This document shows, piece by piece, positions 11,124 to 12,976 of a DNA stretch of 64,000 nt. This DNA is from Promethearchaeia archaeon. GTDB taxonomy: Archaea > Asgardarchaeota > Lokiarchaeia > Sigyniarchaeales > SOKP01. The stretch lies in the NCBI GenBank assembly GCA_046483985.1, contig JAWOCD010000057.1:32001-96000 (forward strand), in the 5' to 3' direction. How positions within the stretch are numbered: position 1 is the stretch's first letter; each line of letters starts with the position of its first letter. The notes below the pieces were generated by a model. It did no database searches. It saw nothing but the letters and a program-made list of their open reading frames with translations, and was not told the DNA's origin. Both the position numbers and the translations under genes were made by a program.

Positions 11124-12976
11124 GACTGTTCACCCCCGTAAATTAATCTTAAATGTTCAAAGCTGCTCAGCATTTCTTTTTTAAGTTCTATCATACGTTC
11201 AAAATCATCATTAGGTATTTCGGATTTCATCCGTAAAAATTTATCTACAATATCCATATTTTTAATATCTTCAATAAGGACCCCCCTATTTAGGATTTCT
11301 TTTGCTCGATTGTAAAATAATAGAATTAATTTAGCCATTGCCATTAATTTTTCAGTAGAAGTAAAATTATCAATATCATCGAAAGCATTTTGGATTAAAA
11401 ATCCCTCTTGAATAATTCTTGCTACAAATAGGGTAAGTTGTTGGTCTTGCGACAAGCTTTGCTCTCCGACTAATTGTGCTACATTTTTTAACTCATCTTC
11501 CTTGGAAAGCAGATCGTTTATCTGAATACGACATTCATACCAATCAAGATCAATTTCTGACCAATCGATATCTTGTTCAAAGTACCAATCAGCAATATTA
11601 TCGGGATAATTCGAATAGGATTTCAGCCAGTTAATTGCCGGATAATGCTTATTATAGGCAAGATTCGCATCCAGAGGCCAAAAGGCTCGTACAAATCTTT
11701 TTGTATTGGCTGTAACGGGTTCACTAAAATCACCCGAAGGAGGAGATATCGAGCCAATAATAGAAAGGGATCCTGTACGTCTTTTATTAGTGACGGTATT
11801 ACCAATGGACATTATAACACCTGCTCTTTCGTAAAATGCCGAAAGTCTCGAAGGAAGATATGCAGGGTAACCTTCTTCGGCAGGCATCTCTTCTAGAAGG
11901 GCAGAAAGTTCACGTAATGCTTCAGCCCATCGAGAGGTACTGTCGGCTAATAAGGTAACATTATAGCCCATGTCACGATAATACTCTGCGATTGTAATAC
12001 CAGAAAATATGCTTGATTCTCTTGCCGAAACGGGCATATTAGGGGTATTGGCAATTAAAACAGTACGTTCCATTAAGGGTCGACCGCCCCAAGGATCAGT
12101 TAGCTTACTGAATTCTTCTAAGATATTAGCCATTTCGTTGCCACGTATTCCACAGCCCACAAAAATAATGATATCAGCATCACTAAATTTGGCAATGGAC
12201 TGCTGAATCACAGTTTTGCCCGTTCCGACCGCTCCAGGGATCGCAACACAACCTCCCTTCGCAACAGGAAATAATAAGTCAATTACACGTATTCCTGTTT
12301 GCAGAGGTACATCTGGATTTAATTTTTTATAAAAGGGTCTGTTTTCCATAATTGGCCATTTTTGGACCATATTATACGATTTTTCGGTGCCCTTTGTTTT
12401 TAAACAATAAATCTCCTCGTCAATGGTGTATTCTCCTTCCTCAGCTATCATGGTTATTTGACCCCCCTCTCCAAAAGGAACCATTATTTTGTGGGAAATT
12501 GACTCGGTCTCCTGAACAACTCCAATTATGTCTCCTTCTGAAATATGATCATTTTCTGATTTTGACGGTGTGAAGTGCCATTTTTTGGTTCGGGAGAGGG
12601 CTGGAACATCTAACCCTCGCTCTAAAAAGCCTACACGTTCGGACCTTTTATATAGATCCTCTAAAGGGCGTTGAATGCCGTCAAATACATTCGATAATAA
12701 GCCTGGAGCTAATTCCATTGATAGTGGTTCATGTAAATTTTTAACTTTCTCCTTTAATTGAAGTTCATTAGTATCTTGAAAACATCGTACTACAACCCGA
12801 TCTTTTAAGATCTGAAGTACTTCACCAATAATATTCTGCTCTTCGATTTTTATAAGATCGTGAAGTCGAATGTCGGTTTCTAAACCTTTTACTTCAATCA
12901 CAGAGCCTTTGACCGCTGAAATATAACCGAAGTTATTTTCTTCTTCTAGTTCACTCGATTTTTCAGATTCGCTCAT
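11120..12976 (-). CDS. atpA: A/V-type ATPase subunit A (catalytic Glu replaced by Ile)
   Basis: P-loop GAVGTGKT, DSTSRWAEALRE, EMPAEEGYPAYL; GCGIRGNE instead of GCGERGNE. Confidence 0.96.
   Translation of the reverse strand: MSESEKSSELEEENNFGYISAVKGSVIEVKGLETDIRLHDLIKIEEQNIIGEVLQILKDRVVVRCFQDTNELQLKEKVKNLHEPLSMELAPGLLSNVFDGIQRPLEDLYKRSERVGFLERGLDVPALSRTKKWHFTPSKSENDHISEGDIIGVVQETESISHKIMVPFGEGGQITMIAEEGEYTIDEEIYCLKTKGTEKSYNMVQKWPIMENRPFYKKLNPDVPLQTGIRVIDLLFPVAKGGCVAIPGAVGTGKTVIQQSIAKFSDADIIIFVGCGIRGNEMANILEEFSKLTDPWGGRPLMERTVLIANTPNMPVSARESSIFSGITIAEYYRDMGYNVTLLADSTSRWAEALRELSALLEEMPAEEGYPAYLPSRLSAFYERAGVIMSIGNTVTNKRRTGSLSIIGSISPPSGDFSEPVTANTKRFVRAFWPLDANLAYNKHYPAINWLKSYSNYPDNIADWYFEQDIDWSEIDLDWYECRIQINDLLSKEDELKNVAQLVGEQSLSQDQQLTLFVARIIQEGFLIQNAFDDIDNFTSTEKLMAMAKLILLFYNRAKEILNRGVLIEDIKNMDIVDKFLRMKSEIPNDDFERMIELKKEMLSSFEHLRLIYGGEQS

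Follow-up and report, generated by a model that had tools for sequence, protein, structure and literature searches.

The window analysed here, a stretch of 64,000 nucleotides from a Promethearchaeia archaeon, carries on its (-) strand a nine-gene operon for an A-type rotary ATPase (A1AO), in the order K-C-H-F-E-A-B-D-I that is usual for Asgard archaea. The operon begins with atpK (15522..15917), which encodes the proteolipid c, and atpC (14365..15381; subunit d/C, AC39 family). These are followed by a putative subunit H of 110 residues, a coiled coil assigned by its position (14028..14360), by atpF (13700..14023), and by a putative subunit E of 241 residues (12963..13688), which is assigned from its place in the operon and has an orthologue in the loci of 20 relatives. 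The gene for the catalytic subunit A, atpA (11120..12976), overlaps by 4 nt with atpB (9735..11123), which encodes the non-catalytic subunit B (462 residues, P0002). The last two genes are atpD (9095..9733), for the central stalk subunit D, and atpI (6847..9090), for the stator subunit a/I. A is therefore found directly upstream of B, in the company of D, F, C, E, H, I and K. The operon order and the flanking genes (PhoU-like/DUF47, VIT1, EndA and Memo) are the same in L014, the closest relative with a long contig.

The initial annotation of this DNA described the arginine finger of B and all the other subunits as intact, and this is borne out. The Arg-finger motif of B is SISRLMK (R354; 10053-10073, (-) strand), the c-ring keeps its ion-binding Glu (E109 in CEALA), subunit a keeps its Arg (SYIRL, residues 610-614), and all nine open reading frames are intact, with no stop or frameshift across the roughly 9 kb of the operon. 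The adjoining VIT1/CCC1 gene (16890-17672, (+) strand) is disrupted. A 29-nt insert at about 17000-17028, which has a hairpin and changes the frame, interrupts it at ...RRYFVNNFYDG / MLTSLG...; the VIT1 of the syntenic L014 locus is intact, with 268 residues.

The atpA product (P0001, 618 residues) has four Pfam domains above the cut-off, namely PF02874 (ATP-synt_ab_N), PF16886 (ATP-synt_ab_Xtn), PF00006 (ATP-synt_ab) and PF22919 (ATP-synt_VA_C). This N-terminal barrel, 'bulge' (Xtn), alpha/beta nucleotide-binding domain and V/A C-terminal domain is the architecture of a V/A-type subunit A. The top match in the PDB is subunit A of Pyrococcus horikoshii (E 7e-185), the A subunits in the PDB align over the full length, and in a phylogenetic tree the protein falls among the primary A copies.

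The unusual feature of atpA is codon 277 (12146..12148, (-) strand). It reads ATA (Ile), where the homologues have GAA or GAG for the catalytic Glu of the GER motif. In the HMMER alignment Ile277, which sits in FVGCGIRGNEM, faces the Glu of GCGERGNEM, so the replacement of the GER Glu by Ile that was proposed in the initial annotation is confirmed by the alignment and by the homologues. The catalytic loop (GCGIRGNE, residues 274-281; 12134..12157, (-) strand) keeps R278 and E281, but the GER carboxylate needed for catalytic competence is replaced by the side chain of Ile277. A single sequencing error had been judged improbable on the basis of the codon, and comparison with the two closest relatives agrees: the corresponding codons are GAG in L015 and GAA in L014, both at least two base changes away from ATA.

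Two other origins for the codon were considered and rejected. Recoding of ATA does not apply, ATA being an ordinary Ile codon in atpA, where it is used 13 times, mostly at columns occupied by Ile, Val or Leu. A micro gene conversion from B to A, as the source of the two-base change, is contradicted by the B codon, which is ATT, and by the flanks, which differ. The change from Glu to Ile requires two non-synonymous steps. The single-step intermediates are Lys or Val, both uncharged, and it follows that either a non-acidic state persisted for some time or there was one rare tandem mutation.

Few biological machines are as conserved as the rotary ATPases, and to our knowledge their catalytic Glu is treated as invariant. 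It is present in all 119 of the full-length homologues retrieved, all of them Asgard, in 57/57 shorter fragments covering the motif, and in each of the 26 A copies at the ATPase loci of 21 related genomes. The closest homologues, P0003 (82% identity, GAG) and P0004 (79%, GAA), both have it. The initial annotation had conceded that its reading would suffer if all close orthologues had Glu, pointing to decay in a single strain, and here the evidence goes against it: the 119 homologues and the 26 copies in relatives have Glu without exception. Because all close orthologues have Glu, Ile277 is private to one assembly and is not a clade-level innovation. The exact protein occurs on one contig only, and an exact-protein look-up gave no further copy. 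A scan of metagenome and genome contig collections with the exact flanks of the codon, the codon itself being left open, found no other contig with these flanks. In a fragment search the nearest sequences were 69-80% identical, and no protein on record is more than 82% identical to P0001.

That Ile277 is private to one metagenome-derived assembly is also what would be expected if the codon had been introduced during consensus calling or polishing, or if it were a deleterious or low-frequency variant of the sampled population, the working allele of the organism having Glu. The VIT1 lesion next to the operon could likewise point to a problem with the assembly, or with the strain, in this region. 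Against this, the change affects two adjacent bases, and nine or more other highly conserved columns of atpA also show private changes, while its frame is unbroken. We consider an artefact or minor variant of this kind improbable, though not negligibly so, and the distribution of changes among the subunits, described below, bears on it further.

The GER Glu activates the attacking water, and is the equivalent of bovine beta-E188, TF1 beta-E190 and EhV1 A-E261. The initial annotation had identified position 277 with this catalytic Glu and stated that its mutation all but abolishes hydrolysis. This is in good agreement with saturation mutagenesis of its homologue, TF1 beta-E190, in which Asp alone was tolerated, with partial activity, and rotation was undetectable with every other residue (PMC13351929). 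A single E190Q site among the three is enough to inactivate F1, and the non-catalytic alpha subunit of F1 differs precisely by the absence of this carboxylate, having Gln there (PMC4415626). In EhV1, E261 has been described as 'key to initiate hydrolysis' (PMC6371843). There is one atpA gene, so all three catalytic sites would contain Ile. By analogy with these F1 and V1 enzymes, chemistry at these sites should be severely impaired for hydrolysis and synthesis alike, and the sole rotary ATP synthase of this archaeon is probably crippled with it. Nucleotide binding is probably kept, since K254, T255, R278, E281, D345 of Walker B, the adenine-pocket Phe and the Arg finger of B are all present.

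It is worth asking whether the enzyme might work nonetheless, with residual catalysis or a compensating group giving a low turnover that is sufficient for an extremely slow-growing syntroph. Mutants of TF1 beta-E190 to Ala or Gln do keep unidirectional rotation, albeit 10^3-10^4 times slower (PMC5380711). The rest of the complex stays constrained, and changes in the P-loop (see below) could be co-adaptations. However, no lineage-specific Asp or Glu has been gained in A or in B that could serve as a compensating acid. The initial annotation suggested E281 as an alternative base, but this is the second E of GERGNE, which is present in every normal A subunit, and it is therefore not a compensation. 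With no uncharged substitution active in the saturation mutagenesis, and with the Glu invariant in every homologue examined, a working enzyme appears very unlikely, and is the least probable of the explanations considered here.

Ile277 is not the only unusual residue in A. Six changes private to P0001 occur at columns that are invariant in the 119 others: G249A, F250V, E277I, S312P, G359A and N507S. The first two are in the Walker A motif or P-loop (residues 248-255; 12212..12235, (-) strand), where the consensus GGFGTGKT has become GAVGTGKT; both changes are unique among the 119 homologues. The sequence still conforms to the Walker A pattern GxxGxGK[TS], including the Lys and the Thr. The earlier statement that the P-loop Lys and Thr are intact thus holds for K254 and T255, whereas the rest of the P-loop is abnormal. 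S312P converts NTSNMP, as found elsewhere, to NTPNMP (residues 310-315; 12032..12049, (-) strand). G359A (11900-11902, (-) strand) lies just downstream of the Walker B region (LLADSTSRW, residues 342-350; 11927..11953, (-) strand), which is itself unchanged. N507S falls in the loop VGEQSLS (residues 503-509; 11450..11470, (-) strand), which also contains P509S, at a column that is 96% conserved. We take this loop (VGxDALP) to be the counterpart of the DELSEED loop of F1-beta. R278, E281, the Walker B region and the subunit B Arg finger SISRLMK all match the consensus.

The number of such changes is far beyond what the divergence of the protein predicts. P0001 deviates at 14 of the columns that are at least 97% conserved, while the median is 1 such deviation and the second-highest count, among the 119 homologues, is 8. 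Normalising by terminal branch length on a FastTree phylogeny gives an expectation of 1.6 (Poisson P 3e-9), and for the six private changes at fully invariant columns an expectation of 0.44 (P about 7e-6). This A-specific pattern is statistically real. The gene is otherwise unremarkable in its rate: there are 49 lineage-unique residue changes in A, compared to 34 and 54 in two sisters, and the three-point dN of A is 0.055, compared to 0.046 and 0.072, so that A is not racing. Synonymous sites are saturated (dS >1 for all pairs), which makes the branch dN/dS uninformative, and selection on the terminal branch is for this reason not directly measurable. Divergence from the sisters is not anomalous in any segment of A, as it would be in a mosaic or recombination tract. 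The lineage-specific changes are not clustered in the core nucleotide-binding domain (11/49 vs 15/88, p 0.5). What is distinctive about A is therefore that it has changed at columns never altered elsewhere, and not where in the protein these columns lie.

The rest of the operon provides a control. In an equivalent set of 120 sequences, subunit B has 6 hits at columns conserved to at least 97%, compared to 3.6 expected (P 0.16), and 2 private changes at invariant columns compared to 0.9 expected, which is not significant. Its total deviation is within the background for its branch length, although on the high side (rank about 5/120). The changes of B at highly conserved columns are K151N and R274K, both at invariant columns, Q209K and L349I; all are private, and L349I is five residues before the Arg finger. 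When alignments of all the operon genes with 17-21 relatives are used, A has hits at 11 of its 160 invariant columns, the highest number for a same-family relative being 4. In the same alignments the counts are 3/128 for B, 2/82 for I, 1/19 for D and 1/7 for F, with none for C, K, E and H. A comparison of an A-specific with an operon-wide excess, by a likelihood ratio calculated by hand, gives 2dlnL of about 7 (p about 0.01), and Fisher tests give 0.03-0.07. A thus stands out from the other operon genes with only moderate significance.

This contrast bears on two of the explanations. Since the excess is limited to A, with B and seven further subunits at baseline, it argues against an artefact of sequence quality: random error would not pick out the conserved columns of one gene while leaving the overlapping B, and the seven others, at background. 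More weakly, it also argues against neutral decay of the whole operon. The suggestion in the initial annotation that the complex is kept under selection accordingly receives moderate, indirect support, A being the one subunit with a conserved-column excess and B, D, I, C, K, E, F and H lying at baseline. The indirect indicators of continued selection are the intact reading frames, the ordinary branch length of A, and this baseline behaviour of the other subunits.

The second of these explanations is early pseudogenisation, in which the whole A1AO has recently become dispensable and has started to decay, A being affected first and no function being kept. The hits in A, together with its modest extra branch length, fit a neutral period of about 0.035 substitutions per site, and a brief, recent and complete relaxation of A matches the counts almost as well as the reading preferred below. 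If the entire operon were decaying, however, the other subunits should share the excess, and about 19 hits would be expected where 10 are observed (P about 0.02). The absence of any stop or frameshift in the operon also speaks against decay, and the two-step codon change, if not one tandem mutation, would be improbable over such a brief interval. Other points in its favour come from the genome and from its relatives.

The genome (4.06 Mb in 128 contigs) is 97% complete. No second PF00006 protein, and no other A/B-type ATPase, was found in it, although an unassembled second operon may lie in the missing 3%. No antiporter subunit of the Mrp, Nuo or Mbh type was found in the genome, nor a TLC nucleotide carrier, the search for the latter having no positive control. 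There are two membrane H+-pyrophosphatases, and two genes of the ADP-forming acyl-CoA-synthetase type, which provide for substrate-level phosphorylation. The H+-pyrophosphatases were considered as a special compensation for the altered ATPase and rejected as such: they are universal in the family, and for this reason represent a standing alternative. Life without a functional rotary ATPase is conceivable for this archaeon, and the relatives suggest that such a loss does occur. With both H+-pyrophosphatases and substrate-level phosphorylation at hand, the same observations fit a complex that has become dispensable.

No match to PF00006 or to PF01496 (subunit I) was found in three related genomes: G024, which is of the same family and is 92% complete in 10 contigs, and G027 and G026, which are of other families in the same order. 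Loss of the rotary ATPase in part of the order is a possible reading, with the reservation that these genomes are incomplete. G033, also of the same order, has a locus (L043, G033:C1:1830000-1846000, 7007-13183) encoding in turn a DUF7948 protein, B, D, Usp and I. The DUF7948 protein (547 residues) is unrelated to A, the B protein has 425 residues and no N-terminal barrel, and there is no A gene anywhere on the single 3.7-Mb contig of this genome. As judged from its gene content, this B-D-I operon would be the remnant of a rotary ATPase that has no catalytic subunit. Pseudogenisation would thus have end states among the relatives, in the three genomes without PF00006 and PF01496 and in the B-D-I operon of G033, and the disrupted VIT1 beside the present operon points the same way. 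Weighing these points against the A-specific pattern, we regard decay with no retained function as rather doubtful.

Other rearrangements of A were seen among the relatives. Five of the same family (G013, G007, G012, G020 and G021) have a second A copy about 6.7 kb from the first, in L020 ((-) strand, ORF offset 15697), L021 ((+), 15645), L023 ((-), 11497), L026 ((-), 15847) and L028 ((-), 15655). The Arg beside the catalytic Glu is a gamma-phosphate ligand, and in all five of these copies it is replaced by Pro, GCGERGNE becoming GCGEPGNE, while the P-loop is normal. They form one cluster in the tree, and a second rotary ATPase, conserved but with a changed catalytic loop, may be encoded here. 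The A gene of G022 (G022:C3:28394-30252) is broken at residues ~270-273, at the G/CGER junction, into pieces 38 nt apart with a TGA; the VMA1 gene of yeast has its intein at this junction. Three further loci (G017:C83, G023:C569 and G034:C65) have A reading frames of ~1150 residues that are interrupted at the P-loop, at residues ~254-258, consistent with inteins. Inteins target the most conserved motifs anyway, and the proximity of such a site to codon 277 is therefore not independent evidence.

On the basis of these observations, the reading that we find most likely, with moderate confidence, is a real and lineage-private disabling of catalysis in the A subunit of the only A1AO of this archaeon, the rest of the complex being still constrained. 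The Ile277 substitution would be real and private to the lineage, and would affect the catalytic subunit of its sole A1AO rotary ATPase. The three catalytic sites would still bind nucleotide, with ATP turnover reaching at most a level 10^3-10^4 times below normal, so that the complex would in practice neither synthesise ATP from an ion gradient nor pump ions usefully. Constraint would be relaxed or shifted on the P-loop Phe, the GER Glu, the NTSNMP Ser and the DELSEED-like loop of A, whereas the fold of A and the other eight subunits would be under purifying selection. As to physiology, we infer that the cell could live on substrate-level phosphorylation, with its membrane energised by the two H+-pyrophosphatases. 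Under this reading the complex would represent either a 'pseudo-ATPase' that has been kept without catalysis, or the beginning of the kind of loss that relatives show.

Three observations favour retention: the pattern is specific to A, the 9-kb operon is intact, and the codon change needs two steps. Early decay is favoured by the losses in relatives, the disrupted VIT1 and the ability of a short neutral episode to reproduce the counts. It is hard to see why the ion channel, the rotor and B should remain constrained if catalysis is dead. The stronger proposal, of a natural 'pseudo-ATPase' in which the only, fully assembled A1AO is kept under purifying selection without ATP turnover, is for the present a tentative one, and we think it probably does not apply. 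If it were true, it would imply a non-catalytic role, for example in nucleotide-dependent regulation of ion flow or as a structural component of the membrane, and would capture an intermediate on the route by which relatives have lost either the A subunit or the whole enzyme. The roles named in the initial annotation, a nucleotide-gated ion conduit, a sensor or a scaffold, are at this stage speculative.

Should the allele prove genuine and fixed, we would have here a free-living archaeon in which the one ATP synthase is disabled in catalysis but in other respects maintained. It would bear on the energy conservation of Asgard syntrophs, on the loss of the complex in related lineages, and on how catalytic subunits turn non-catalytic, as B and alpha once did. 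If on the other hand it is a private deleterious variant or an assembly problem, its main value would be as a caution on the reading of single residues in MAG sequences.

It is useful to compare P0001 with known systems. The archaeal and V/A-type A subunits (P. horikoshii, PDB 1VDZ/3I4L; Thermus and Enterococcus, 3A5C/3VR2) are homologous to it over the full length, with E values from 7e-185 to 5e-166, and share with it the four domains, the P-loop Lys and Thr, the GER Arg, the second Glu, Walker B and the adenine-pocket Phe. P0001 differs from them in having Ile for the catalytic Glu (EhV1 E261), Val for the P-loop Phe, which we take to be F236 of P. horikoshii, and the additional private changes at S312, G359, N507 and P509. 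The GCGEPGNE paralogues are, like P0001, natural A subunits from this family whose catalytic loop has changed. They nevertheless keep the Glu and lose the next Arg, occur beside a canonical copy, and are conserved in all five of their genomes, whereas the window has neither a second A copy nor a GEP motif.

The TF1 beta-E190Q/A/D mutants and the saturation set concern the same residue in the same fold as the Ile277 position, and predict no detectable bulk activity and a rotation that is 10^3-10^4 times slower. They are laboratory constructs of an F-type enzyme, whereas P0001 is a natural A-type protein that has other active-site changes. A further parallel is with the non-catalytic subunits, V/A B and F1 alpha, which bind or once bound nucleotide and, like P0001, have no carboxylate at this position; subunit B of the window has Ile at the homologous position (FCGIGI), as does P0001. 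The difference is that B and F1 alpha are ancient paralogues that are always paired with a catalytic partner, while here it is the sole catalytic partner that is without its Glu.
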